DNA of 64,000 nucleotides from Patescibacteria group bacterium (GCA_023484515.1 JAMDAY010000019.1:30483-94482), one strand, 5' to 3'; shown: positions 2,324 to 48,144, counted from the stretch's first letter. A program made the numbers and translations. Notes: a model not told the origin generated them from the letters alone.

Positions 2324-2896
2324 ATGTTTAAAAAACGACCGAAATCACTAGCGGCCATTATTGTCTTGGCGGTTATATTAGTCTTAGCCGTTGCCTATGC
2401 AGGGAAACTGGAAACCCGCAGAGTCGTAAACCTAAGCGACAAACAAATCCAAGCGGTTAAAATCCAAAACCAGGACAGTCTGATCAAGAGCGAAACCCAA
2501 ACTGCAATTTCCATGCTGCAGGCCGTATATGACAAATCCGCCAAAGGCGAATACTCATTATCTAAAGCTAAGACTTTAGGCGCTGACTTGCTAAGAAACT
2601 TGCGTTACGGCCCCAGCAACCAAAGGTATTTTTTTGCCGATACCTTGGATGGAATTAACGTGGTACTTTACGGCAATAAAGATGTAGAAGGCAAAAACCG
2701 GCTAAACGACACGGTTAACGGCATAAGTTACATAAAAGACATAATAGCCAAGTCCCAAGCCGGAGGCGGTTATACCGATTATTTTTATCCTAAAATTACG
2801 GGCGGCGAACCTTTGGCCAAACGCGCTTACAGTATGGAATTCCAGCCCTTTGGCTGGTCCGTAGGCACGGGTTATTATTTGGAAGACGTAAAATAA
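2324..2896 (+). CDS. membrane-anchored single Cache (sCache_2-like) extracellular sensor domain protein with no output domain
   Basis: Pattern YFFADTLDG..G..GGGYTDYFYPK..GGEPLAKRAYSMEFQPFGWSVGTGYYLEDV matches the Cache_2 signature. A single N-terminal TM precedes it. Confidence 0.6.
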   Translation: MFKKRPKSLAAIIVLAVILVLAVAYAGKLETRRVVNLSDKQIQAVKIQNQDSLIKSETQTAISMLQAVYDKSAKGEYSLSKAKTLGADLLRNLRYGPSNQRYFFADTLDGINVVLYGNKDVEGKNRLNDTVNGISYIKDIIAKSQAGGGYTDYFYPKITGGEPLAKRAYSMEFQPFGWSVGTGYYLEDVK

Positions 2897-2904
2897 CATT
2901 TTTA

Positions 2905-2937
2905 GACGGTCCGGCCTTTTGGCCGGGCCGTTTTTTT
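2905..2937 (+). terminator. terminator-like GC hairpin followed by a T-run
   Basis: ccggcc tttt ggccgg followed by ttttttt. Confidence 0.4.
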
Positions 2938-2973
2938 GTTATGATTAATCAAAGGAGGGTCATCCGAATTTAA

Positions 2974-3474
2974 ATGAAACAAAACAAATTTCAACACGGT
3001 TTTTCTTTGATTGAACTTTTGGTGGTTATTACCATTATTGGGCTGCTGGCTTCAATAGTATTTTTGGCTACTGCCGGCGCTAGGGTAAAGGCGCGAGACA
3101 CCAAACGCAAAACCGACCTGGCGCAAATGGGCAGGATGCTATACGCGGGTTCTTGCTTTATGCCCGGTTCCGGAGCCGGGGACTACGATTTGGCGGATTT
3201 AATGGGCGAGTTGGAAACGAAGTACCCGCAATACGCGCAATATGCTTCGCTGCTGCCTAAAGACCCCAAAACCGGCAGCGGCAGCAAGGCCAATTACCGG
3301 TATGCAATTACGGCTAACGGACACTGTGCCTTATACGCCAACCTGGAAAACGAAGAAGAACAAATTACTTTGCCAAACTTGTCCGCCGTAACCCCTGGTG
3401 CCGGAACGGGGATACTAAAAACGACGGTTATCGGCTGGAATGGCACAAATATTTTTTACCAAGTGGGAAAATAG
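2974..3474 (+). CDS. type IV pilin / pseudopilin-like protein (prepilin N-terminal methylation motif)
   Basis: N-terminus GFSLIELLVVITIIGLLASIV is a class III signal peptide with G-F cleavage and the E5 residue. Confidence 0.75.
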   Translation: MKQNKFQHGFSLIELLVVITIIGLLASIVFLATAGARVKARDTKRKTDLAQMGRMLYAGSCFMPGSGAGDYDLADLMGELETKYPQYAQYASLLPKDPKTGSGSKANYRYAITANGHCALYANLENEEEQITLPNLSAVTPGAGTGILKTTVIGWNGTNIFYQVGK

Positions 3475-36836: not shown

Positions 36837-38660
36837 TTAATATCCCCGCGGCGAACTGCTATTTACCGTGGACTGAAAATCCTGGAGCTGCCGGCAAAGA
36901 GCGTCGGAAGATGCTATCTGTCCGCACTTTGCCTGCTTTTTGTCAAATTTTTTTACGCAGGTCAGCCTGTCGGAATAAGACAAATCGTCCCAATGGCTTA
37001 TGCACTGCCTGACTTCTTCGTCCAATGTCAAATCCTCGGCGCTGGGAGCAGGCGGCGGTTCCTGGTATTGGGTGGAAGCTGCCGGCAAAACCACTTGCAG
37101 TTGGGCTGCCGCCAGGCAGGTAGATTGCTCTTTCAGCACGCCAAGGGAGCCGTTTTGCGCCACAGCCCCGCGAAACACAAACTTGTTTACCATAGTCTCC
37201 GTAACCTGCGCCACAAACTTGCTAATAAAGTCCTTCGCGTTATTAACCCCCAATTGCATAATGGCGTTTAAACCGGCGCGTTGCGCGCTGACAATGTTGT
37301 TTATGGAAACGCTGATGGAATTCTTAAGCGTGTCGCGCGGCGTTTTTAGCCCTGGGCTGGTTAATTCCTGTTCTGCGGCTTTCTCCGCCGCGCTTTCTGC
37401 CTGGCTGGCTAGATCCTGGTAATACAGGGCCCAACCGTTGGGTGAGGCCAGAAAATCGCCCACTCTGGCCATCTTTTCATAATAATTCGGGTCTTTAGGG
37501 TCCATGCTGGCAGGATTGAATCCCAAATACTGTGCCGCTTTGGCCTGGAATACCGGCTGCAGGTCCCGGTTCTGCTGGCCGCAGGAAAATTGGGGGATAA
37601 ATTCCTTAATAATCTGCCGGTCTAAATTTTCAGAAACATACTTATTTAAATAATCATCCACATATTGCCCGCTGACCAGCGCGTCGGAATAATACAAAAA
37701 ATTGGCGATTAAATAGTTCTGCTCAATCTTGTCAACCAGTTTGCCAATGAACGATGCCATAAACTGGGAAAAGGAAGACTGCAACCCTTGCTGCACCGCA
37801 TCCATTACCATTCTTGGTATATCCCCTACGGTAATAGATACATCGCCCAAGCCCAAAAAAGCATTGGCGGTTGGGATTAAAGCAAATTTGGAATCTTTTG
37901 CATTATCTTGTGCGTAAGATTGATAGTGAATTGTTAAAGACGCAAGTTGGTATTTGTCGGAAATTTTTTTTAATTCGCTGCTAAAATTTTTGGCGCTGTC
38001 GTTAATAACAGCGTAATCCCGATAAACCTTTGGCCAGGGATTTTGATCTTGCTGCGACGAATATTGCTTGGAAATTTCCAGCAGCTCGCCATAGGCCGCG
38101 TAAGCGGTCAATAAGGATTTTTGCAAGTCTTCGGCATCCTTGGGAACCGCGGCCTGGGAAATTTTTTGGAAGACCGCATTGTATTCGTCCTTAACCTGGT
38201 CCGCAACGCCCGGATCCCCGCCAAACAAGCTGTTATTCAAACCGGCGGTCTTGCCGTTAAAATCCGCTATCGGCCCCACGGTATCGGTTAAATAGCCAAT
38301 CATGGCTTGTTGGGAATCATTTCCGGAATCGGCCAGATTTAACGCCGGGATGGCAGGAGTTGTTATGACTTGATCGGTTTGCAAAGCCTGCTCCACTTCC
38401 TCTTGGACGTCTTTTTGCGTTAAAATTTCCTGAAACAAGGCTTTGCTGGCATTGGGGTCTATTTTTAAGCTGTCCAGGTATTTTAAATAAACGGCAGGGT
38501 CAAGTTGTGCCTGTTGGTTTTGATTATAATTTGTGGTATCATGGTATGATAAATTCGGCCGTTTCCATAAGGATACGGCCGTTAAAATTACGACCAAAAC
38601 CATGGCCGCCGCAAAATATTGTTTTTGTTCTTTGGTTTCTAACATAAAGGCCGCAAACAC
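36837..38660 (-). CDS. large membrane-anchored extracytoplasmic hypothetical protein with a Cys-rich C-terminus
   Basis: N-terminal TM and a 600-aa Q/N/A-rich body. Six Cys residues in the last 60 aa. Confidence 0.45.
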   Translation of the reverse strand: MFAAFMLETKEQKQYFAAAMVLVVILTAVSLWKRPNLSYHDTTNYNQNQQAQLDPAVYLKYLDSLKIDPNASKALFQEILTQKDVQEEVEQALQTDQVITTPAIPALNLADSGNDSQQAMIGYLTDTVGPIADFNGKTAGLNNSLFGGDPGVADQVKDEYNAVFQKISQAAVPKDAEDLQKSLLTAYAAYGELLEISKQYSSQQDQNPWPKVYRDYAVINDSAKNFSSELKKISDKYQLASLTIHYQSYAQDNAKDSKFALIPTANAFLGLGDVSITVGDIPRMVMDAVQQGLQSSFSQFMASFIGKLVDKIEQNYLIANFLYYSDALVSGQYVDDYLNKYVSENLDRQIIKEFIPQFSCGQQNRDLQPVFQAKAAQYLGFNPASMDPKDPNYYEKMARVGDFLASPNGWALYYQDLASQAESAAEKAAEQELTSPGLKTPRDTLKNSISVSINNIVSAQRAGLNAIMQLGVNNAKDFISKFVAQVTETMVNKFVFRGAVAQNGSLGVLKEQSTCLAAAQLQVVLPAASTQYQEPPPAPSAEDLTLDEEVRQCISHWDDLSYSDRLTCVKKFDKKQAKCGQIASSDALCRQLQDFQSTVNSSSPRGY

Positions 38661-38784: not shown

Positions 38785-40383
38785 TTATTCTATCAACTCT
38801 CCCCCGAAAATCTTAAGCGCGTCGGTTATAGCCGAGGCCGGAGAAGCTGTTTCCTCGCTGCTTTCCTTGGCCACTTGGGACAATATGTTAATTTTTTTGC
38901 CCAGAACTTCTTCCAGGGCTTGGCAAATTATGGCGCGGTTTTTCGCGTTTTCCAAATTCTGCTTATGGAATAAGAACTTTACTCCCAAGACCGCCGCGTT
39001 TCCCCGGACATCTATAGCGGGAGAATTCTTTACCAAATTGGCTAAGGGGCTATTAATGGCTTTTATTTTTTCCACGACCTGAGGCCAAACTTGCTGTAAT
39101 TCTTCCAAACTTGCCGGAGGACCCCCAACGCGCGAAACTGTTTCTTCTGCAAAACTGTTAGATAAATTTTGGACTTCCAGGGTGGCGCTGGAAACCTTAG
39201 GCGGCGCGGTATTTGCCTGGTATTTTACCGAAGCGGATTCCGCAACTATTTCTTGGGGCCGGGCAGGCGCAACGGCTGAAGTCTTTTTATAAACCGCCTC
39301 CAGGCCGGCCAGCAACAGCGGAATATCCGGCCGCGGGGACGCGGCCAAATCTTTAAACGACTTTAAAAAGAGCCTGACCGTAAATATCAGTTCATTGGCG
39401 GAAAATTTTCCAGCTAAATCCTGCAATTTGCTTTCCGCCGCAGCCGAAGGCAGCCCGGCCGCCGCTCCGCTGACCTTAAAAATTAAGGCCTTCCTTAAAT
39501 ATTCCAAAAAATCCTTGTTTAAAATTTGGAAATCCAAGCCCTTTTCCAGTAAGGAGTCAAAAAACGCGGGAATGTCCCCGGCTTTTCCCAGGGCAATCAG
39601 TTCCAACAGATTTTCGCAAACCGCAATATCCGTAATTCCCAGCAATTGCTGGCAGTCAGCCAGGGTGCAATCGCCGCCCAAGGTTGCTATTTTATCCAAC
39701 AGGGATAAAGAGTCGCGGACGCTGCCTTCGGCGTTTTGCGCTACCAGTTTTATGGCTTCTTCAGGCAGTTTTATATTTTCCGCCTTGAGGATTTTAGCCA
39801 AATGACTTTCCAAATCTTCCGAAGCCAGCCTTTTAAAATCGAAACGCTGAGTGCGGGATACAATGGTAGCGGGAACTTTGTTAACTTCCGTAGTGGCCAA
39901 AATAAAAATAGCATGGCTGGGCGGTTCTTCCAGGGTCTTAAGCAGCGCGTTAAACGCACCCTTGGACAGCATATGCACTTCGTCTATAATGAACACCTTA
40001 TATTTTCCCGCAGCCGGATTAAATTTTACGTGCTCTATGAGGTCGCGGATATTGTCCACGCCGGTGTTGGAGGCCGCATCTATCTCCACCAAATCCAAAA
40101 AATTTCCCTCTTCAATCTGCTTGCAAACCTGGCATTGACCGCAGGCGTCACCATTGTTTTTTTTGGATCTTAAATCTTGGTTCTTGGATCTTTCAACACA
40201 ATTCACCGCTTTTGCCAAAATCCTGGCAACCGACGTCTTCCCTACCCCGCGCGTGCCGGTGAACAAATAAGCATGGCTAACCTGCTCGCTTTCCACCTGG
40301 TTCTTAAGCGTTCGGATGATATATTTTTGGTTTAAGACCTCGGCAAAATTTCGCGGCCGGTATTTGCGGTATAAAACTGCCAT
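38785..40383 (-). CDS. dnaX: DNA polymerase III subunit gamma/tau
   Basis: Walker A GTRGVGKTS and the Zn module CGQCQVC. An in-frame insert ERSKNQDLRSKKNN is encoded by a (ttggatctt)-type repeat. Confidence 0.9.
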   Translation of the reverse strand: MAVLYRKYRPRNFAEVLNQKYIIRTLKNQVESEQVSHAYLFTGTRGVGKTSVARILAKAVNCVERSKNQDLRSKKNNGDACGQCQVCKQIEEGNFLDLVEIDAASNTGVDNIRDLIEHVKFNPAAGKYKVFIIDEVHMLSKGAFNALLKTLEEPPSHAIFILATTEVNKVPATIVSRTQRFDFKRLASEDLESHLAKILKAENIKLPEEAIKLVAQNAEGSVRDSLSLLDKIATLGGDCTLADCQQLLGITDIAVCENLLELIALGKAGDIPAFFDSLLEKGLDFQILNKDFLEYLRKALIFKVSGAAAGLPSAAAESKLQDLAGKFSANELIFTVRLFLKSFKDLAASPRPDIPLLLAGLEAVYKKTSAVAPARPQEIVAESASVKYQANTAPPKVSSATLEVQNLSNSFAEETVSRVGGPPASLEELQQVWPQVVEKIKAINSPLANLVKNSPAIDVRGNAAVLGVKFLFHKQNLENAKNRAIICQALEEVLGKKINILSQVAKESSEETASPASAITDALKIFGGELIE

Positions 40384-41021: not shown

Positions 41022-41083
41022 TTAACAGTCCCAAAAACCGTCCCCCACAATGCGGGGACGGTTTTTGGTTGAAATTAAATAAT

Positions 41084-41554
41084 TTATTTTTTCCTTAATC
41101 TCGGCACGAACATGGGGACGCGTTTTTTGTAGGCGCGATAGTCTTCCATAAATTTTTCTTCCAAAAGCCGCTCTTCCAGGTTTGCCCAGAACACCAAGAC
41201 CAGGGTCAGCCAGATAACTATCGCCAAAACTTTATATGACGGCTGCCAAACAAATATGCACCAGGCTAATACAATATCCGTTGCATACAACGGATGGCGC
41301 ACTACGGCATACGCCCCTTCGGTTACCAGTTGGTTAATGCTATGCACGCTGGCCGGAGCCTTGCGGTGCTTGTTATAAGCAAAAAGCGAAACGCCTATGA
41401 AATTAATAATACCTAAAGCCAAAACCACTGAGCCTATCCAGCCGCTTGTGAACATCTGGCCCGGTTTGACAATTTTCCATAAAATGGCGCTGCCGAAGGC
41501 GACAATAACCCACATTAATAGCGGGCTGGCCAGGCGATATTTTAAATTAGGCAT
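41084..41554 (-). CDS. isoprenylcysteine carboxyl methyltransferase (ICMT)-family membrane methyltransferase
   Basis: RHPLY motif and C-terminal EE..L...F..Y..Y pattern. Confidence 0.65.
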   Translation of the reverse strand: MPNLKYRLASPLLMWVIVAFGSAILWKIVKPGQMFTSGWIGSVVLALGIINFIGVSLFAYNKHRKAPASVHSINQLVTEGAYAVVRHPLYATDIVLAWCIFVWQPSYKVLAIVIWLTLVLVFWANLEERLLEEKFMEDYRAYKKRVPMFVPRLRKK

Positions 41555-41561
41555 GTTTTGT

Positions 41562-42224
41562 TTATTTTTTAAACACTACCATTTTATAGCCGACAAAATT
41601 CCAAATCATAGACACGGCGGTAGCGGCAACCAAGGCTAAATTTTTATTCAAATCGCCGTTGCCGGTCAAATGGACGGCTACGGAAAACCGGGAAGCTATA
41701 AAAAAATTGATAAAAAACCCTACCAGGCTGACTATGAAAAAAGAAATAAAGGGGTTACCAGGCCTTGTTTCTCCTCCCAATCCGAAGCTGTGCCATAATG
41801 CCAATTGGGCGATAAGGAAAATTGCCAAAAGTATAAGGTAGTAATAATAAGGGGCGGTCGCCTGCGAGCCCAAATATACAAACCCCAGCGCCAAAACCCC
41901 AAGCAAGCCCACCCAGACCAGATGCAGGAAATTCTTGAACAAGCCGGAAGACTGCTGCCCGAAAGCCCAATATTTGTTCCAATAATAGCTTTGCAGCGTA
42001 GCCAGCAAAAAACCGGCCCCACTGCTGGCGCCAAGCCCGTTTCCCTGGACAATGCCAAAATATTTGGAGACCAAATTAGCCACCACAAAGCTTAGGCCCG
42101 TGTTTAAAAATCCTACTGCGGCGAACCTTAATACTTGCGTGATCACAGGGTTCTTTTGCAAAATCCCTTCAATTCTGCCATTCCCTATCCCCTGTCCGGG
42201 AGCTGCCCGCTGGGTTGTTTCCAT
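41562..42224 (-). CDS. GtrA-like polytopic membrane protein
   Basis: N-terminal LRFAAVGFLNTGLSF..YYWNKYWAF and C-terminal IWNFVGYKMVVFKK both fit the GtrA pattern. Confidence 0.5.
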   Translation of the reverse strand: METTQRAAPGQGIGNGRIEGILQKNPVITQVLRFAAVGFLNTGLSFVVANLVSKYFGIVQGNGLGASSGAGFLLATLQSYYWNKYWAFGQQSSGLFKNFLHLVWVGLLGVLALGFVYLGSQATAPYYYYLILLAIFLIAQLALWHSFGLGGETRPGNPFISFFIVSLVGFFINFFIASRFSVAVHLTGNGDLNKNLALVAATAVSMIWNFVGYKMVVFKK

Positions 42225-42235
42225 AAAATTAAAAA

Positions 42236-42865
42236 TTACAATTCTTCGTCCTCGTCCATTATGACCTTGTTTCCGCCGCCTTCCTCGTCGCCGCCGCCCA
42301 TTTCCATATCAGTATGCGCGGAACCGGAATTTTTCTTAATCACATTTTCCACGGCCGCCCATTCCGAAGGAGTGTCCTTGGGCACGACCAAAGTTACCTC
42401 ATCGCCGGGTTCCGCTTTAAAATAAGTGAGCGAAGCCAGCAAGACTTTATAAGTATTGCCTTCGGCCACCACCCGGAAATCGCCTTTTTCGTCCACTGTC
42501 AATATACCCAGCATCTTTTTGCGCTCCACCGGGCCGATCTGCTTGTAAATGAACGAACCGTCGTCGGCAATGGTCAGCTTTAACACATCGCCTTCCACCA
42601 ACTTTGATTTGGAAGCGTAGTTTGCCGGCACCGGATACTGTTTTTTGTCAGGCCCGATCATATTCTGCCCGTCAAACACGCCTTCAATTATTTTACCGCC
42701 TTCGGATACGGTAAAACTGCTGGCTTTTTCCGCTAACTGGCTGGCGCTGCTTTTTGCGGCCGGTCCGCCCATCATCTCCCGCAAAAGCTGCTTTGCCGAT
42801 TGAATGTTCTTTTCGGCGGAATCTATCATTTGGGCAATCAAGGCAAGGTTGGAAAGTTTATCCAT
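42236..42865 (-). CDS. hypothetical protein with an acidic Gly-rich C-terminal tail
   Basis: Open frame. A promoter-like TTGCCT-17-TGcTATAAT sits ~170 nt upstream on the minus strand (~43030-43065). Confidence 0.4.
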   Translation of the reverse strand: MDKLSNLALIAQMIDSAEKNIQSAKQLLREMMGGPAAKSSASQLAEKASSFTVSEGGKIIEGVFDGQNMIGPDKKQYPVPANYASKSKLVEGDVLKLTIADDGSFIYKQIGPVERKKMLGILTVDEKGDFRVVAEGNTYKVLLASLTYFKAEPGDEVTLVVPKDTPSEWAAVENVIKKNSGSAHTDMEMGGGDEEGGGNKVIMDEDEEL

Positions 42866-43145
42866 ATATTTTTTATTTTTTGGCCAATATAAAATTATGG
42901 CTTAAAAATTAGTTAATTTTAATTTTGACATGCTTTTTGTTTCTAAATTTTCCAAACCCCGGCAAAAAAGGGAAAATTTGCGTCCCCTGGGTTTAAAAAA
43001 TACGCTGGATTGAAGTAATGTCATTATAGCAATAAATAAAAAATAAGGCAAATTACGTGATAAACGACGGGAAAAATGCCACTGTCTTACCCTTGGCATC
43101 CTCTTGGTTAAGCCATTATTTTTAATAAATTGCTTGATTGTTGAG

Positions 43146-43346
43146 CTAATGGGCATGTGTCTTTTTCGCGCCTGCCTTTTTACCGGTAGCCAGAATATCC
43201 TCAAAAATACCGGTGCTTTCCACAGCCATTCCCGCCCCTGTTTTCATTGCCAAATCGGCAAAGCCCTCCAATAATTTCGCACCTTCCGCATGCCCTCCGC
43301 CATGATGCCTGCTAGTTTCTGCGCGGCCTCCCCCGTGATCTGACAT
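43146..43346 (-). CDS. small His/Gly-rich protein (66 aa)
   Basis: Strong SD AAAGGAG 6 nt upstream of the ATG. Lies immediately downstream of the ATPase gene. Confidence 0.45.
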   Translation of the reverse strand: MSDHGGGRAETSRHHGGGHAEGAKLLEGFADLAMKTGAGMAVESTGIFEDILATGKKAGAKKTHAH

Positions 43347-43392
43347 AATGCTCCTTTCTAATATTATTCCTATTACTGTTAAAAAAATAAAT

Positions 43393-45951
43393 TTACAGGC
43401 CTCTTTCCACGTCCCCCACGCCGGCGCTCATCATTTCCGCCACTTCGCCGGCTTCCAAAATTTCCGATTCCACTTCGGCGCGCGGCCGGCCGTGCTTAAG
43501 GCGGGAAAGCTGGCGGATAGCCTGGGCTAATTCGTCATTTTTCTCCGCAGACAATGGAATAGTGTTCATGTTAAACGGCTTGCTGGCCGTACCGTTGATC
43601 ATTAATCTCACATAAGTGCTGAACCGTTCAATATTCACCAGGTCAAACTGGTTGAAAGTCGGCGCGAATTCCTTGGCCAGGACTTCCGCGTCTTCCGCGC
43701 CTGTCCGGAATATTACCATGGTGCCGGCATTGCCGAATACCGCATCCCTTAAGTCTTTTGACCCCGCGCCCTGCGCTCCGGCCTGCTGCTCCAACTGCCC
43801 CAAATATTGGTGCGCAATTACCAGATTTAACTTATACTTTCTTGCTTCGGACAAAATGGAGGAAAATGCGTCAGTAATAAAATTCTGGAACTCGTCCACA
43901 TACAGGTAAAAATCCTTCCTCTGGTCTTCGGGAATGTCGGCCCGCGACATGGCCGCAATCTGGATTTTACTGACCAGGATCAAACCGAGCAGCTTGGCAT
44001 TAATTTCCCCGGTCCTTCCCTTGGATAAATTTACCAGCAGCACCTTGCCTTCATCCATTATCTTGCGGAAATTAAACCCGCTTTTGGGCTGGCCGACAAT
44101 ATTGCGCATCATGCTGTTTTCCACAAACCGGCCGACTTTGGAAATTAAGTATCCCAGCATCTCCGACTTATGGAAGTCCGAGGTCTTGGCCATTTCCTTT
44201 TCCCAAAACAGCCGCACTACCGGGTCGCGAACTTTGCCAATTTTGTATTTTTGGAAATCTGTATCCGTAAAAATTCGCGGAATGTCCGTAATGGTGCCGG
44301 GATGCTCCTCGTCCGCCATCAGCGTCAGCATGGCATTGCGCATATTATGCTCAAACATGGGCCCCAACATGGCCGGATCGGTTACCAGCTTGTAAAAAAT
44401 CTGGATCATTTCCTGAACCGCGAAATCTTTCTGCTCTTCGCTGTCCACTTCCAGCATGTTCAGCCCAATGGGCCGCTCCATGTCAAAGGGCTCAAATACA
44501 ATAATATCTTCAGCCCTTTCCTTGGGACAGCGGCTTAAAATATCCTGGACCAGGTCGCCGTGCGGGTCAATAACGCACAGGCCTTCGCCGTTTTTAATGT
44601 CCTGGATGGCCATATTGGCCAAAAGCCAGGACTTGCCTCCGCCGGTCCGGCCAAGGATGTAAGTATGACGCCTGCGGTCGCTGCGCGTCATGTAGATGGG
44701 CGTTTCCACGCCGCGGTAAATATTTTTTCCCAGCAGCAGACCTTCCGCCGGCGCATTCAGCGGCGGCGGCGCTTTTTTTGCGGTCAACCACTTAATGTTC
44801 GGCGTTTCTATGTAGGGAGTGGGCAAATGCCACAGCGACGACAATTCTTCGGTGTTTAAAATATCTTTCCTGCCATAATCCCGAAACACGCGAAAAATGT
44901 AATCTTTTAAGATGTCAGTCTTGTCGCGCTTGCGGGCATGCAGGCCGTTGAACGGCGGCATATTAAATTGCAAAAATGACGCCAATAAATTCCGCATGTG
45001 CATTTGCGCGTTCCCCGGAACGGCAGAGGATGTTACCAGGCGAATGTTGGCTTTGTAGCCCGGCCGGCTGGATTTTTCTTCCAGCTTTTTGACTATTTCC
45101 TGCTGCATCGGCGTTAATTGGATTGGCGAAGCGTATCCGGACAGGTCTTTGTGCGCGTGCGAAGGCTGGAAGTTCCTGTCGCCGCGGCCAAGGCCGGCCA
45201 AGGCGCGCCCCAACGACCGCATAAACCCGACTAAAAGGCGGTAGGCATGACCGCGTTCTATCAGTTCCGGATTTTTCCCCTGCTGGATTTCCAAAGCCAT
45301 GCGGCGCGGGCCGTATTGCCAGGAAGTCCCCGCAGGGCAGATAATAAATTGCACGGCAGCGCCTTCGTTTTCCCCAAGCTTGCTCATGGCATTGGTCAGG
45401 GAATTCAGCGGATCACTTTCCATGTTTTTGTAAGTACGGATAGGGTAGACGTATTTTTTACTGAGCCGCAACTCTTCCACTTCCAAAGTCCCTTGTTTCT
45501 GGAACGGGTTGTAGCCCTTTATTTGCTCAATAAAGGCATGGGGATACTGGGCCTGGATTTGTTTTTCCACCAATTCCTGCAAATGCTTGGGACAGTTGAC
45601 GTAAAAAGAAATTTTTTTGTCGGTGCAGGCAATCTCAAAGCTGTAGTAATCTTTGCCCTGCAGCCAGCCCTTGCTATGCCCCGATTCGGACAGCGTGGCA
45701 AACAACTGCTCGGCCACGGCAATCATCTGTTTTTTTTCCTCAATGCTTTTTACCCGCTGCTGGTCTTTTTCTTCCGAGTTGTCCTTGGGCATCTGAATTT
45801 CCAAAAAAACCCAGTCCTTGATCCTTGGAATAATATGTTTGGTGTGGTAAACGTGCCGCTTAAAGTAATAAAAAAAGACAGCGACAAATACTGCCGTCAA
45901 TCCCAGCAAAACTAAAACCGCAAAGCTAATTGTGTTTAATTCCGGAAACAT
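43393..45951 (-). CDS. TraD/VirD4-like (HerA-FtsK superfamily) P-loop ATPase with an N-terminal TM anchor (DUF87/TraG-D_C-like)
   Basis: N-terminal TM, Walker A GRTGGGKS, Walker B-like LYVDEF and LVIAHQ. The ~850-aa architecture resembles T4SS coupling-type ATPases. Confidence 0.55.
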   Translation of the reverse strand: MFPELNTISFAVLVLLGLTAVFVAVFFYYFKRHVYHTKHIIPRIKDWVFLEIQMPKDNSEEKDQQRVKSIEEKKQMIAVAEQLFATLSESGHSKGWLQGKDYYSFEIACTDKKISFYVNCPKHLQELVEKQIQAQYPHAFIEQIKGYNPFQKQGTLEVEELRLSKKYVYPIRTYKNMESDPLNSLTNAMSKLGENEGAAVQFIICPAGTSWQYGPRRMALEIQQGKNPELIERGHAYRLLVGFMRSLGRALAGLGRGDRNFQPSHAHKDLSGYASPIQLTPMQQEIVKKLEEKSSRPGYKANIRLVTSSAVPGNAQMHMRNLLASFLQFNMPPFNGLHARKRDKTDILKDYIFRVFRDYGRKDILNTEELSSLWHLPTPYIETPNIKWLTAKKAPPPLNAPAEGLLLGKNIYRGVETPIYMTRSDRRRHTYILGRTGGGKSWLLANMAIQDIKNGEGLCVIDPHGDLVQDILSRCPKERAEDIIVFEPFDMERPIGLNMLEVDSEEQKDFAVQEMIQIFYKLVTDPAMLGPMFEHNMRNAMLTLMADEEHPGTITDIPRIFTDTDFQKYKIGKVRDPVVRLFWEKEMAKTSDFHKSEMLGYLISKVGRFVENSMMRNIVGQPKSGFNFRKIMDEGKVLLVNLSKGRTGEINAKLLGLILVSKIQIAAMSRADIPEDQRKDFYLYVDEFQNFITDAFSSILSEARKYKLNLVIAHQYLGQLEQQAGAQGAGSKDLRDAVFGNAGTMVIFRTGAEDAEVLAKEFAPTFNQFDLVNIERFSTYVRLMINGTASKPFNMNTIPLSAEKNDELAQAIRQLSRLKHGRPRAEVESEILEAGEVAEMMSAGVGDVERGL

Positions 45952-46081
45952 TTGTTTTTATTTTTATTCGGGATAAACAGACTTTAGATTATAAGATTAT
46001 GATTATCACCAGCCGATGTTTAGATAAGCAACACGGAAAGGATAACCCTTGTGCAACACGCCTGTAAATAACCGGCTATGA

Positions 46082-46474
46082 TTATTCCCTGGCGTCGCCA
46101 AGTTCTTCCAAAGCCGCTGTAATATCGTGCGCCGGACCGGAATCTTTTTCGTGCGTGCCTTCGTGGAGCTTTTGGTCTCCTTGTAAAATTCTCAAAGCTG
46201 CATTTAAAATTTTCTTATATTTTTCTCCCGCGGAAGAATCGGCTAAAATATCTTTTCTAAATTCTGTATTACCCGACCCTAAATCACCCATGGTTGAAGC
46301 ATTATCCCCTTCAGCTCCCGCTTGGGATTCTTCTTTCTCCACTTCCGTCCTTGCTTGCCTTAAAGCGTCCTCCGCCTTTTCTTTTCCGTACCGCTGGAGT
46401 TCCTTAGGCAGAGGGGCGGATTCAAAATTTTTCCTTAATGGCTGTTCAGATTTATAACGAGGGTCTATAAGCAT
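46082..46474 (-). CDS. acidic hypothetical protein
   Basis: Open frame only. Confidence 0.35.
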   Translation of the reverse strand: MLIDPRYKSEQPLRKNFESAPLPKELQRYGKEKAEDALRQARTEVEKEESQAGAEGDNASTMGDLGSGNTEFRKDILADSSAGEKYKKILNAALRILQGDQKLHEGTHEKDSGPAHDITAALEELGDARE

Positions 46475-46552
46475 AAATTGGCCTTTAGTTTAGATAAATT
46501 ATACCACACTTTGCATATTAACTCCAAATTATAATCATTTTTATACTTTATG

Positions 46553-46918
46553 TCAAACCCTGCCTTGCTGACGCCATTTTTCTTCCAGCTTGCGGATTTC
46601 TTCCTCGTTAAAACCAAAATGATGGCCAATTTCGTGCCAAACCACACGCCGGATTAGATTTGGGATTAGATTTTCCGAACCGGCAAAACGCTCTATGGTG
46701 CCTTTCCAAATGGTAATCTTGTCCGGCAAAACCGGATTATACCCGTATGTCGAGCCGCGATGCAACTGCGAAACGCCATGATACAACCCGAACAGGCTGT
46801 TATTGGGCGACTCGCCGTCTTCCAGCACAATTTCCACGTTATCCATCTTTTCCTTAATGGATTCCGGCAGCGCCTCTACCGCCCGGTTAATATGTTGTTC
46901 AAATTCTTCCCTGGTCAT
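46553..46918 (-). CDS. small zincin-like metallopeptidase (HEIGHH motif)
   Basis: VVWHEIGHHFGFNEEEI contains HExxH. Confidence 0.6.
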   Translation of the reverse strand: MTREEFEQHINRAVEALPESIKEKMDNVEIVLEDGESPNNSLFGLYHGVSQLHRGSTYGYNPVLPDKITIWKGTIERFAGSENLIPNLIRRVVWHEIGHHFGFNEEEIRKLEEKWRQQGRV

Positions 46919-46985: not shown

Positions 46986-47537
46986 TCATAATTGGGATTT
47001 TATCCCGAATTTTTGCACGTAAAGAACATCGTAACCGACCATCTCCCGTTGTGACGTATCTATTCCGCAAGATTGCAGGAAGCCCAACATCTTCTTTTGC
47101 GCTTGATTAGGATCTTTGTCGGTCAGATGCTCTATCTCCAGGAAATCCCCAAGCTCTTTGACCTTATCCGCGCAAATTTCATACTCCCCGACCTTCCCCT
47201 TCCTTCGGATTTTGGTAATGTCGGCAATAACCTTAAACTCCAGCAATTTAATGATTTCGTGCATTTGTTTCTTATTAAAAATTTCCACTTCGCGCTCCAA
47301 TTTGGAAAGATGGTTTCCTTGGTCGCTCCGCTTTAAGGTGAAAATGCTTTTCCCCACCTGCTGCCTTATCCTTAAGACGTTTGTGCCCGCCGGGACGGGA
47401 ACGTCAGGGATTTCGTTGGGTATATAAACAATGTCGCGCTGCTTAACCGGCGCGCCCAAAACGCAGCCGTGATCCTTTAATATCCGGATAGCCTTATTTA
47501 TGTCCGCAACCTTAATTTTTACTTCCACTTCCTTCAT
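46986..47537 (-). CDS. CYTH-domain protein (class IV adenylyl cyclase / triphosphatase-like); start at MKEVEVKIKV
   Basis: Alternating charged EVEVKIKV N-terminal pattern and matching beta-strand motifs. Confidence 0.65.
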   Translation of the reverse strand: MKEVEVKIKVADINKAIRILKDHGCVLGAPVKQRDIVYIPNEIPDVPVPAGTNVLRIRQQVGKSIFTLKRSDQGNHLSKLEREVEIFNKKQMHEIIKLLEFKVIADITKIRRKGKVGEYEICADKVKELGDFLEIEHLTDKDPNQAQKKMLGFLQSCGIDTSQREMVGYDVLYVQKFGIKSQL

Positions 47538-47541
47538 AGTG

Positions 47542-48144
47542 TCAGGCTTCAATAAGCCGGCCCATGACAATTTTATAATCCCTAAATGTTTTGTATGCTT
47601 CCGCCCTCAAGCCCACGGATTGCGCCGCAGCCAGGCATTTTAAATCGTCGTCCCAGACGACAATTTCATCCTTTTTGCATCCGGGCAAGCCAAGGCAAGC
47701 TTTTTCCCAATATTCCGGCTGGCGCTTTAAATACCCGACTTCGCAGGAAGAAAATTTCCCGTCAAAATTATGTTTTAAGCCTACCGTATCCCAAAGATAC
47801 GCCATGCGGTATTTTTCCTGGTCAGTAGTTAAAAAACACTTAACTCCTTGCCGGCGCATCTGCTGAAGGTTTTCCATCATGTCCGGATCCGTAAGCGTTT
47901 CCCCGGAAAACCAAAAGTCCAGCAATTCTTCCAAAGTCTTGTTCCATCCCCAATCTTTAATGCGCAATGGCAGTTCCTGCTTTAAATCCGCCCTGCCGGT
48001 TTCGCACAACAAAAATTCATTCTGGAAAAATTCGTCAACTTGAGCCTTTTTAATAGGAATCCCCAAATCCAAAAGCCTTAAAGAAAAATACTTATCCCTC
48101 TTTACTACCGACCCATCGCAATCCATTAAAATTGTTTTTATCAT
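47542..48144 (-). CDS. HAD-superfamily hydrolase
   Basis: Motif I DCDG, motif II TTD, and a C-terminal DDD. Confidence 0.6.
   Translation of the reverse strand: MIKTILMDCDGSVVKRDKYFSLRLLDLGIPIKKAQVDEFFQNEFLLCETGRADLKQELPLRIKDWGWNKTLEELLDFWFSGETLTDPDMMENLQQMRRQGVKCFLTTDQEKYRMAYLWDTVGLKHNFDGKFSSCEVGYLKRQPEYWEKACLGLPGCKKDEIVVWDDDLKCLAAAQSVGLRAEAYKTFRDYKIVMGRLIEA

Follow-up and report, generated by a model that had tools for sequence, protein, structure and literature searches.

A chromosomal DUF8128-type coupling-protein-like ATPase and its small upstream gene in Patescibacteria: a possible detached motor for a type IV secretion system

Introduction

Patescibacteria (candidate phyla radiation, CPR) account for much of bacterial diversity, and those in culture are attached to bacterial hosts. 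Only S. epibionticum is genetically tractable, and it needs a type IV secretion system (T4SS) to grow on its host. The gene cluster of this system is essential and comes without a recognisable coupling protein, and no substrate is recognised for it either (Wang et al., 2023, PMC10633639). What energises and loads such a system is the question raised by a locus in a stretch of 64 kb from a Patescibacteria group bacterium (GCA_023484515.1, JAMDAY010000019.1:30483-94482), referred to as the window in the following. Positions 42,236 to 46,474 of the window encode, on the minus strand, an 852-aa ATPase resembling type IV coupling proteins (T4CPs) and three small proteins that we term acid130, HG66 and acid209. 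We tentatively interpret the locus as specifying a detached coupling ATPase that serves a chromosomal T4SS, with the small protein encoded upstream as its obligate, lineage-specific partner, and would place this interpretation just on the doubtful side of an open question. A previous sequence-only reading of the same stretch had proposed a TraD/VirD4-like, membrane-anchored ATPase in an operon with small orphan proteins, possibly serving DNA uptake, translocation or surface interaction. All of the open reading frames (ORFs) it named are present on the minus strand where it had placed them and are genuine genes, with thousands of homologues found for the ATPase and for the 209-aa protein.

The occurrence of orphan T4CP homologues in Patescibacteria is already known. 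A recent survey detected VirB4 in 2,417 of 3,035 Patescibacteria genomes and 5,713 VirD4-like T4CP homologues in 2,918 of the 3,035, found relaxases to be rare, with a few members carrying a MOB_C relaxase next to t4cp, and derived the patescibacterial T4SS from monoderm MPF-FATA systems (Quinonero-Coronel et al., 2025, PMC12102498). The t4cp homologue of S. epibionticum was stated to be non-essential, which left exaptation possible (PMC12102498). In the part of the genome table of that study consulted here, which does not include its header, one Doudnabacteria genome is flagged 'Yes', taken by us as VirB4 present.

Domain structure and family assignment of the ATPase

The ATPase has the following features (window coordinates, with residue numbers of the protein).

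43393-45951, minus strand: 852-aa DUF8128 / type IV coupling protein-like ATPase
45862-45930, minus strand: transmembrane (TM) helix, residues 8-30, the sole hydrophobic segment
44776-45828, minus strand: DUF8128 domain, residues ~42-392
43552-44754, minus strand: P-loop nucleotide-binding domain (NBD), residues ~400-800
44629-44652, minus strand: Walker A motif GRTGGGKS, residues 434-441
Residues 460-466: VIDPHGD
44077-44454, minus strand: predicted helical insertion, residues ~500-625
43888-43911, minus strand: Walker B motif FYLYVDEF, residues 681-688
43792-43824, minus strand: LVIAHQ motif region, residues 710-720 (LVIAHQ itself 710-715)
Residues 800-852: helical C-terminal tail

The single N-terminal TM helix, the Walker A motif and the LVIAHQ sequence had been pointed out in the sequence-only reading and are confirmed. 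A basic stretch directly follows the TM helix, and the body of the protein is therefore predicted to reside in the cytoplasm. The domain of about 350 aa behind the membrane anchor corresponds to DUF8128 (PF26449), an assignment that is a database annotation precomputed for an identical database protein (P0001) and for every homologue listed; our family profile (A4) aligns residues 42-392. The glycine and lysine of Walker A, the Asp-Glu pair of Walker B and the glutamine of AHQ are invariant in 48 sequences (alignment A3, about 33% mean column identity), which leads us to expect an active ATPase.

Four Pfam models match above their cut-offs, i.e. PF10412 (TrwB_AAD_bind; 34.5 bits, cut-off 20.5, aligning to residues 422-516 only), PF02534 (T4SS-DNA_transf; 32.6 bits, cut-off 20.1), PF01935 (DUF87; 32.9 bits, cut-off 23.2) and PF12696 (TraG-D_C; 26.1 bits, cut-off 22). 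The last three are the models that the sequence-only reading, which had seen a likeness to coupling proteins and HerA-FtsK ATPases, had proposed for a check, and its comparison with coupling proteins is the one that holds: the FtsK_SpoIIIE NBD (PF01580) and the gamma domain have no Pfam match in the protein, nor have the VirB4 models AAA_10 and CagE. In NCBIfam, only TraD, VirD4, CedD and TrbC models give hits, all of them far under their cut-offs and the best ones all being TraD/VirD4, and NCBI already names the ATPase a T4SS DNA-binding domain protein. A search of the PDB with the single sequence yielded TrwB (E 4e-7), and the profile built from 48 family members retrieved TrwB (2.6e-8), DotL (1.3e-6) and then HerA (~1e-3), with VirB4 and FtsK undetected in this profile search. 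Alignment of the ATPase family with a Firmicutes VirB4 (AAA_10) protein by hhalign gave a probability of 2.5%. Among the PHROG families, phrog_5156 matches (E 5e-94), as does, weakly, an FtsK-like family (E 0.0019). At the level of sequences and profiles, these results support an assignment of the ATPase as TraD/VirD4/TrwB-like and not as FtsK, VirB4 or HerA.

Like TrwB of R388, TraD of F and SXT, and VirD4, which make up its best Pfam, NCBIfam and PDB matches, the ATPase combines membrane anchoring with an FtsK/HerA-superfamily NBD and a match to the TraG-D_C region, and its two Walker motifs are probably likewise separated by a helical insertion. These proteins have two TM helices, whereas the window ATPase has one TM helix and the cytoplasmic DUF8128, and its gene is chromosomal, conserved like that for SecY and free of adjoining relaxase or T4SS genes. 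VirB4/TrwK resembles the ATPase in that an N-terminal domain of about 400 aa precedes a C-terminal NBD, but a Bacillus cluster described below holds a separate VirB4 beside a DUF8128 ATPase. FtsK/SpoIIIE and HerA are ring translocases of the same P-loop superfamily, the DUF87 model matches the ATPase, and HerA is found among the weak profile and fold matches; the alpha, beta and gamma domains of FtsK, the 4-TM region, the HAS barrel and the NurA partner are, however, all missing. In the AlphaFold model, the N-terminal domain is of the alpha/beta type, and the stretch from Walker A to Walker B contains six helices (residues 505-618), where the predicted local distance difference test (pLDDT) falls below 50. 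With this model, Foldseek returned full-length VirB4/TrwK as the best PDB match (E 6e-11, ~900-980 aligned columns), at TM-scores of only 0.2-0.25, followed by TrwB, HerA and Cag-beta. We treat the VirB4-like overall layout as no more than a lead.

Chromosomal setting and conservation

An exhaustive search of representatives clustered at 50% identity returned 23,182 clusters at E<=1e-3 and 6,105 at E<=1e-30, with many matches being full-length (800-860 aa) and some being fusions of 1,000-2,000 aa. Identical or near-identical proteins belong to Candidatus Doudnabacteria / Patescibacteria metagenome-assembled genomes (MAGs). The gene order secY ... ATPase ... acid209-GtrA-dnaX recurs across 80 Doudnabacteria genome loci, so that the neighbourhood, which the sequence-only reading had wanted compared across related genomes, is indeed conserved. 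In the 29 Doudnabacteria loci with all relevant genes, mean identity to the window proteins amounts to 76.9% for the ATPase, 76.5% for SecY, 76.0% for acid209, 51.5% for DnaX and 45% for GtrA. Conservation at the level of SecY, combined with a fixed chromosomal place, is not what is expected of a gene from a conjugative element. A consensus-anchored alignment was used to scan metagenome contigs for a wider sample and gave 80 diverse loci, the ATPases of which are 37-55% identical to that of the window. Within 8 kb on either side of the ATPase, neither the 80 genome loci nor the 80 metagenome loci showed an association with T4SS or relaxase genes.

The window itself is an ordinary piece of core chromosome, encoding FtsI/PBP, MraW, MreB, RecJ, a DinB-family polymerase, a glycolysis block, HtrA, DnaX and SecY. 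The latter was recognised by its own sequence and by 65-84% tblastn matches in related loci; the ORFs past secY, which lie outside the set scanned against Pfam, resemble a ribosomal-protein operon by their look. GC content at the locus (0.475-0.491) is similar to that of the remaining window. Among 29 window ORFs scanned against Pfam, including every ORF of at least 313 aa, none is a T4SS gene, in line with the sequence-only reading, which had no other T4SS component in view. Scans for tRNA genes and Rfam families found none in the window, and an integrase, a relaxase or a tRNA gene was likewise not detected there by Pfam, tRNA scans and jackhmmer for Replic_Relax. The left flank was extended by 6.8 kb beyond the window and added only cell-envelope genes.

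The small gene upstream of the ATPase and its counterpart in S. epibionticum

Upstream of the ATPase gene, at a distance of 130 bp, lies the gene for a small acidic protein.

46082-46474, minus strand: acid130, 130 aa, computed isoelectric point (pI) 5.09

Acid130 is probably largely disordered, has no Pfam, NCBIfam or PHROG match and finds a tblastn match in only three of the 80 Doudnabacteria loci. Its position is nevertheless rarely empty: a same-strand ORF of 100-160 aa is located less than 100 bp upstream of the ATPase in 62 of the 80. In Doudnabacteria, the nearest upstream ORF is almost always on the same strand, acidic, of low complexity, 110-150 aa long and ~25-50 bp from the ATPase. 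In about half of the 80 metagenome loci, a small same-strand ORF (100-190 aa) abuts or overlaps the start of the ATPase gene, and at least four families can be distinguished among them (fam0, n=23; fam4, n=11; fam10, n=6; fam28, n=3). A small upstream gene abutting or overlapping that for the ATPase is found in most lineages. As all hhalign probabilities among five upstream small-protein families are below 1%, the small proteins have to be regarded as positional analogues and not as demonstrable homologues. Pfam searches with representatives of the small families (B, C, His/Gly, fam0, fam4, fam10 and fam28) gave sub-threshold noise only, and the small-protein families have no secretion signal in common. 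Acid130 is a putative partner or adaptor of the ATPase. DotL (IcmO) of Legionella and Cag-beta/CagZ of H. pylori provide examples of T4CPs with small dedicated partners that gate or select substrates, and both of these T4CPs, DotL and Cag-beta, also turned up in the sequence and fold comparisons of the ATPase. No similarity to DotM, DotN, IcmS, IcmW or CagZ could be detected in acid130 and its analogues, and any likeness would be a functional one only.

Published transposon sequencing (Tn-seq) data point at the importance of such a pair. Two T4CP-like genes, SEML1_0142 and SEML1_0293, are present in Table S1 of Wang et al. (PMC10633639). SEML1_0142 (1,019 aa) is classed as essential at all time points, and so is, as essential, SEML1_0141 (139 aa), situated 12 bp upstream (PMC10633639). 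The statement in the 2025 survey that the t4cp of this organism is non-essential applies to SEML1_0293 in the Tn-seq table, but not to SEML1_0141/0142. A metagenome locus (L172) has the gene order of SEML1_0137-0145, i.e. infC, YifB, a small ORF 12 bp upstream of the ATPase, the ATPase, two reverse-strand genes, gyrB and gyrA. Its ATPase (P0267), a 1,045-aa protein with DUF8128, shares 42% identity with the window ATPase over residues 11-833 of the latter, and the upstream ORF belongs to fam28. As in the window, the SEML1_0141/0142 pair consists of a small gene (12 bp upstream) and a T4CP-like ATPase with an NBD starting near residue 380; it differs in that SEML1_0142 is extended at its C-terminus to a length of 1019 aa, has gyrBA and not acid209/dnaX as neighbours, and in that SEML1_0141 stems from another sequence family (fam28) than acid130. 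From this synteny we infer that SEML1_0141/0142 and the pair of acid130 and ATPase have both their family and their two-gene layout in common.

Some lineages feature variations on the ATPase gene. Tandem DUF8128 ATPase genes are found in L171 (4581-9985), L097 (7959-13009), L084 and L091; those of L171 encode proteins of 806 and 994 aa, the stop codon of one gene overlapping the start codon of the other, and the second copy in L097 (856 aa) has no obvious N-terminal hydrophobic segment. The tandem arrangement suggests hetero-oligomeric rings or sub-functionalised paralogues. Giant fusions carry extensions of ~600-1,200 aa at the C- or N-terminus (P0264-P0280, 1,400-2,000 aa; P0367-P0388, with the ATPase at the C-terminus of 1,400-1,500 aa; and L082).

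The same architecture on plasmids and phages

A tblastn search of plasmids and phages revealed the full layout of DUF8128 and NBD on Bacillus, Clostridium and haloarchaeal plasmids and also in SPO1-like Bacillus phages and phage G; Streptomyces, Staphylococcus and Sulfolobus plasmids match the ATPase by tblastn as well, and are counted as matches only and not as full layouts. The B. subtilis plasmid NZ_CP154917 is a particularly informative case. It encodes an 885-aa protein annotated as 'DUF87 domain-containing protein' that matches the DUF8128 profile (hhalign probability 99%, E 3e-18) and is covered by tblastn over residues 100-793 at ~24% identity. The gene forms the upstream end of a complete Tcp/Tn916-like Gram-positive T4SS cluster and is followed by genes for Replic_Relax, TcpC, TcpE, AAA_10/VirB4, a large TcpH-like conjugal-transfer protein and a lytic transglycosylase/C40 peptidase. 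Replic_Relax (PF13814) is the MOB_C relaxase class (PMC5357655). Because it resides next to a MOB_C relaxase in a Tcp-like T4SS, the DUF8128 ATPase takes the position of the coupling protein in Bacilli. The plasmid protein has the same DUF8128 and NBD architecture as the window ATPase and therefore belongs to the same T4CP sub-lineage, but the window gene is followed by none of the MOB_C relaxase, TcpC, TcpE, VirB4, TcpH-like and hydrolase genes. The T4CP of pLS20, considered as the Bacillus counterpart, was dismissed since it has two TM helices and the IPR003688 signature and is a canonical VirD4.

In phage SP8 (L163, 5770-9307), a 906-aa homologue aligns from residue 105, inside DUF8128. The gene is preceded by a 73-aa ORF and immediately followed by one for a Replic_Relax (MOB_C-type) protein, in a phage without T4SS. 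ATPase homologues also occur in other SPO1-like phages and as gp156 of phage G.

A detached coupling ATPase and competing explanations

In the interpretation that we favour, the ATPase would be a chromosomal, vertically inherited descendant of a T4CP of Gram-positive-type conjugation systems, held in the membrane by a one-helix anchor. By analogy with TrwB it would form a ring, and the N-terminal DUF8128 on the cytoplasmic side would replace the usual second TM segment. The ATPase may work in trans with a chromosomal, MPF-FATA-derived T4SS encoded elsewhere, acting as its substrate receptor and translocation motor, and acid130 would serve as an obligate, lineage-specific adaptor or regulator. 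Since the ATPase comes without a relaxase, its cargo would more likely be protein, or a nucleoprotein formed in some way other than by a relaxase, than conjugative single-stranded DNA. The closest functional context found is conjugative coupling, namely the T4CP beside the MOB_C relaxase in the Tcp-like T4SS of Bacillus. We also count in favour that a T4SS needs a motor, that the essential cluster of S. epibionticum contains no recognisable coupling protein and that both SEML1_0141 and SEML1_0142 are classed as essential.

A number of observations pull in the other direction. The ATPase adjoins no T4SS genes here or in the ~170 related loci examined, and jackhmmer found no relaxase/Replic_Relax in any of the CPR loci, which gives no hint at a substrate. 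On the scale of the whole group, only 148 of the 5,713 T4CP homologues are situated near virB4 (PMC12102498), and T4CP homologues are present in at least 501 more genomes than VirB4 (2918 vs 2417). Lytic SPO1-like phages carry the ATPase without any T4SS, which implies that the clade can act without one. In S. epibionticum, the second homologue SEML1_0293 (921 aa) is non-essential (PMC10633639), and the assignment of our ATPase to SEML1_0142 over SEML1_0293 is made by synteny and the small upstream ORF and not by a tree. The family affiliation has its own weak spots: the ATPase scores far under the NCBIfam equivalog cut-offs (e.g. SXT_TraD, 62.8 vs 366 bits), its AlphaFold model is poor (pLDDT 61, shallow alignment), and DUF8128 is without a sequence-detectable PDB relative, the matches of its profile to PDB sequences being chance matches to designed repeat proteins only (E >=0.3).

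The main competing explanation is a housekeeping translocase that has no need of a T4SS and handles DNA or nucleoprotein of the chromosome while it is replicated or segregated or while the cell divides, together with the putative tandem OB-fold protein acid209 and linked to DnaX. We regard it as unlikely, yet it makes sense of several findings. The order of small ORF, ATPase, acid209, none to two genes and dnaX is kept in Doudnabacteria and in all four distant loci sampled via acid209, and in Saccharimonadia-like loci the ATPase is located two genes from gyrB-gyrA. Among the 80 metagenome loci (L083-L162), a gene for a Xer-like tyrosine recombinase (Phage_integrase + SAM_1) resides a few genes from the ATPase in 14 (convergent and downstream of the ATPase in 13 of these), a DivIC/FtsB septum-formation gene is near it in nine and a dnaE-like gene for DNA polymerase III alpha (N-terminal sequence only) in three, all of these being raw counts without a background rate. 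The conservation of the ATPase at SecY level, the spread of T4CP homologues beyond that of VirB4 and the occurrence of the same ATPase in phages without T4SS would also fit. Neighbours of this kind may, however, partly be due to chance in small CPR genomes that are rich in information-processing genes, acid209 can be separated from the ATPase (see below for SEML1_0404) and has its own promoter in the window, and the NBD is nearer to T4CPs than to FtsK by sequence. Furthermore, S. epibionticum already contains a canonical essential FtsK with gamma domain, and also an SSB, alongside its T4CP-like ATPases, and a role of the ATPase as an FtsK replacement was rejected for this reason. More improbable is an ATPase for secretion or assembly of the adjoining small acidic or His/Gly-rich proteins without a T4SS, in the manner of the FtsK-like EssC. 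A conserved ATPase flanked by lineage-specific, fast-diverging small proteins without known domains would suit such a function, and so would the Tat-like TRREFLF motif and hydrophobic stretch in four His/Gly-rich proteins; yet a gene for a partner forming a membrane channel is missing from the surroundings, there is only one TM helix in the ATPase, the small families lack a common secretion signal, and SEML1_0141 is itself essential, which befits a subunit or adaptor better than one cargo of many.

The sequence-only reading had thought of DNA uptake, and a motor for competence working with type IV pili and ComEC would agree with Patescibacteria being naturally competent and without nucleotide synthesis, with the pilin-like gene in the window and with the comF, recG and radA genes contained in T4SS loci of class ABY1. 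No locus examined has a competence gene linked to the ATPase, though, the pilin gene is 40 kb off on the opposite strand, and deletion of comEC abolishes competence in S. epibionticum yet leaves it viable, in contrast to the essential SEML1_0141/0142 pair, and we consider this function most improbable. A remnant of an integrated conjugative or mobilisable element, finally, is effectively refuted. Plasmids and phages are indeed the closest characterised contexts, and a MOB_C relaxase does reside next to t4cp in a few Patescibacteria, but the gene occupies the same chromosomal place, from secY to dnaX, across Doudnabacteria, its conservation equals that of SecY, its GC content does not set it apart from the window, and neither an integrase nor a relaxase nor a tRNA gene turned up in the window, in which no direct-repeat search was made.

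A broader conception would cover both the detached coupling ATPase and the housekeeping translocase. In it, the pair of small ORF and DUF8128 ATPase is an essential machine found throughout Patescibacteria that was exapted from a T4CP and is now independent of conjugation, being either the missing T4SS motor with adaptors that track host range or a new T4SS-independent translocase coupled to DnaX and the tandem OB-fold protein. In this general form we deem it rather unlikely. Our findings indicate that patescibacterial T4CP homologues form a distinct DUF8128-type lineage that serves real conjugation clusters in Bacilli, and that these homologues come with a tightly coupled, fast-evolving small partner gene. 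The protein may be the missing motor of the secretion system that these bacteria need on their hosts. The question of what energises and loads the essential T4SS becomes directly testable, and candidate specificity factors are named. In the searchable literature we found no paper on PF26449/DUF8128, and neither a mention of the DUF8128-type sub-lineage and of its connection with MOB_C-bearing Tcp-like clusters in Bacillus nor one of the conserved small upstream partner gene, the SecY-level conservation and the SEML1_0141/0142 correspondence.

Acid209, a probable tandem OB-fold protein, and its neighbour dnaX

Downstream of the ATPase, acid209 heads a group of genes that extends to dnaX.

42236-42865, minus strand: acid209, 209 aa, pI 4.74
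41562-42224, minus strand: GtrA-like membrane protein (Pfam/NCBIfam), synteny with dnaX conserved
41084-41554, minus strand: PEMT/ICMT-like methyltransferase (Pfam/NCBIfam)
41042-41058, minus strand: intrinsic terminator-like hairpin 3' of the methyltransferase gene, rated good
38785-40383: dnaX, after the methyltransferase gene and terminator

Acid209 starts with an N-terminal helix (residues 2-31) and a disordered linker, continues with two beta-barrels resembling OB/cold-shock folds (58-111 and 115-176) and ends in a disordered acidic tail. The latter terminates in D-x-DEEL, with DEDEEL being present in 27 of 27 aligned Doudnabacteria sequences and in none of 11 distant homologues, two of which have acidic tails of another sequence. 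Distant members share the strongly conserved core motif EGVFDG..M.G.DG..Y.VP.NYASKSKLV.GD.LKLT. Pfam, NCBIfam and PHROG gave no match, and in this sense only does the designation as a small orphan protein in the sequence-only reading fit: the family is large, with all 8,000 of 8,000 scored candidates matching in a single-sequence search and 4,972 of 8,000 in a profile search. It spans Doudnabacteria, Falkowbacteria and Kerfeldbacteria, and some entries are mislabelled '50S ribosomal protein L7/L12'. The four distant loci sampled via acid209 (L167-L170, including Falkowbacteria and Kerfeldbacteria) retain the order of small ORF, DUF8128 ATPase, acid209 and dnaX mentioned above, and their outer flanks differ.

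In S. epibionticum, the probable counterpart SEML1_0404 encodes a hypothetical protein of 171 aa two genes upstream of dnaX and next to neither of the ATPases. The protein is annotated with ECOD OB folds from 7dic and 2id0, its closest matches in the AlphaFold database are labelled L7/L12, and it is classed as essential at later Tn-seq time points (PMC10633639, Table S1). As SEML1_0404 stays with dnaX away from both ATPases, acid209 and the ATPase are separable. Only some of the classes have acid209 next to the ATPase; the most constant neighbour of acid209 is dnaX, to which it is probably tied functionally rather than to the ATPase, and members of the family are probably next to dnaX in Saccharimonadia, too. 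We infer an essential nucleic-acid-binding protein of several Patescibacteria classes that may, by itself, be an uncharacterised factor associated with replication or RNA. Apart from any function of the ATPase, the family therefore deserves attention as a widely conserved, probably essential and uncharacterised protein beside dnaX in several classes of Patescibacteria. SEML1_0292, downstream of SEML1_0293, was considered as an acid209 homologue and turned out to be a GNAT acetyltransferase.

Transcription units and small genes downstream of the ATPase

Promoter-like and terminator-like sequences divide the locus as follows.

46528-46556, minus strand: sigma-70-type promoter TTGACA-17-TATAAT, 12/12 consensus, -35 element overlapping the zincin stop codon
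43146-43346, minus strand: HG66, 66 aa, His/Gly-rich termini (13 Gly, 6 His), strong GAAAGGAG ribosome-binding site
43023-43051, minus strand: promoter-like TTGCCT-17-TGcTATAAT (TG-extended -10) upstream of acid209
42969-42988, minus strand: terminator-like hairpin with T-run in the acid209 leader, between promoter and start codon, weak

Promoter-like sites in the region number 27 versus 13.4 expected, the sole 12/12 site being the one before acid130, which is followed ~30 nt downstream by a second element, TGgTATAAT. Terminator-like sites number 17 versus 13.6 expected. The hairpin in the acid209 leader could be a leader/attenuator element or a chance match. Since the 12/12 promoter sits at the zincin stop codon, downstream of both the zincin and the CYTH gene, these two genes are placed outside the ATPase unit, and acid209 is assigned to a separate unit because of its own extended -10 promoter. 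HG66 starts 44 nt past the ATPase stop codon. Judged from the sequence, the likely transcription units are acid130-ATPase-HG66 and acid209-GtrA-methyltransferase, the latter closed by the hairpin at 41042-41058. Of the single operon proposed in the sequence-only reading, the part comprising acid130, the ATPase and HG66 remains, while the zincin, the CYTH protein and acid209 have to be taken out; the ribosome-binding site before the 66-aa ORF and the promoter of the 209-aa protein that it described were both recovered.

HG66 has no Pfam, NCBIfam or PHROG match but is no orphan in terms of position. It belongs to a His/Gly-rich positional family of proteins of 65-110 aa encoded in the gap between ATPase and acid209 in 30 loci (L001-L038 and L080, from closer Doudnabacteria), with termini such as MSGGHGHE...GGGGHGGGHGHH. 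Four members feature the Tat-like (twin-arginine translocation) motif TRREFLF followed by a hydrophobic stretch; HG66 itself is without the motif. A metal-binding or exported role of this family is possible. In Doudnabacteria, the gap holds none to four small ORFs from recurring families. A 77-aa 'MEENYI...' family is found between ATPase and acid209 in 13 loci and a family of ~145 aa with a helix-turn-helix-like '...FLAEAIRSRRTSLxRAAEISxRV...' sequence in 23 loci including distant Doudnabacteria, both being absent at this position in the window. The ATPase and acid209 genes are directly adjacent in ~10 loci. A further family of 60-70 aa ('...DGSFxHGLQVFIAWVK') occurs in L072 and L075-L078.

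One Doudnabacteria subclade has no acid209-GtrA-dnaX block downstream of the ATPase. In L031, L037, L040, L041 and L068, the ATPase gene is followed by genes for a coiled-coil-rich protein of 360-460 aa and a protein of ~95 aa; a Pfam search with the pair from L031 returned nothing.

Other genes in the window and observations on related loci

The remaining genes to which the sequence-only reading had drawn attention are the following.

46553-46918, minus strand: Zincin_1 mini-metallopeptidase (HEIGHH), Pfam E 3e-18
46986-47570, minus strand: CYTH / class IV adenylate cyclase-like protein, Pfam E 3e-16
2324-2896, plus strand: standalone sCache_2 protein
2974-3474, plus strand: pilin-like N_methyl protein with N-terminal methylation motif

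Both the HEIGHH peptidase and the CYTH protein had been named correctly, and NCBIfam classifies the latter as a class IV adenylate cyclase. Their synteny with the ATPase locus is weaker than that of the core genes, with the zincin retained in 30 and the CYTH protein in six of the 80 Doudnabacteria loci. The pilin-like and sCache_2 genes are present at 2324-3474, in the reverse of the order previously given; they are located ~40 kb from the ATPase locus, to which they show no link.

Between HtrA and DnaX, at 36837-38660 on the minus strand, a 607-aa protein is encoded that has no Pfam or NCBIfam match. It features a hydrophobic N-terminal segment and a Cys-rich C-terminus and is conserved in 25 of the 80 Doudnabacteria loci at 32-53% identity.

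Two loci with the typical Doudnabacteria synteny of ATPase, acid209, GtrA and dnaX, L075 (DATJFX010000054.1) and L079 (DASPNG010000006.1), have been deposited as Methylomirabilota and Binatia MAGs, and many other contigs with the ATPase synteny are labelled 'uncultured Candidatus Saccharibacteria'. These odd taxon labels are likely to stem from mis-binning or generic labelling.

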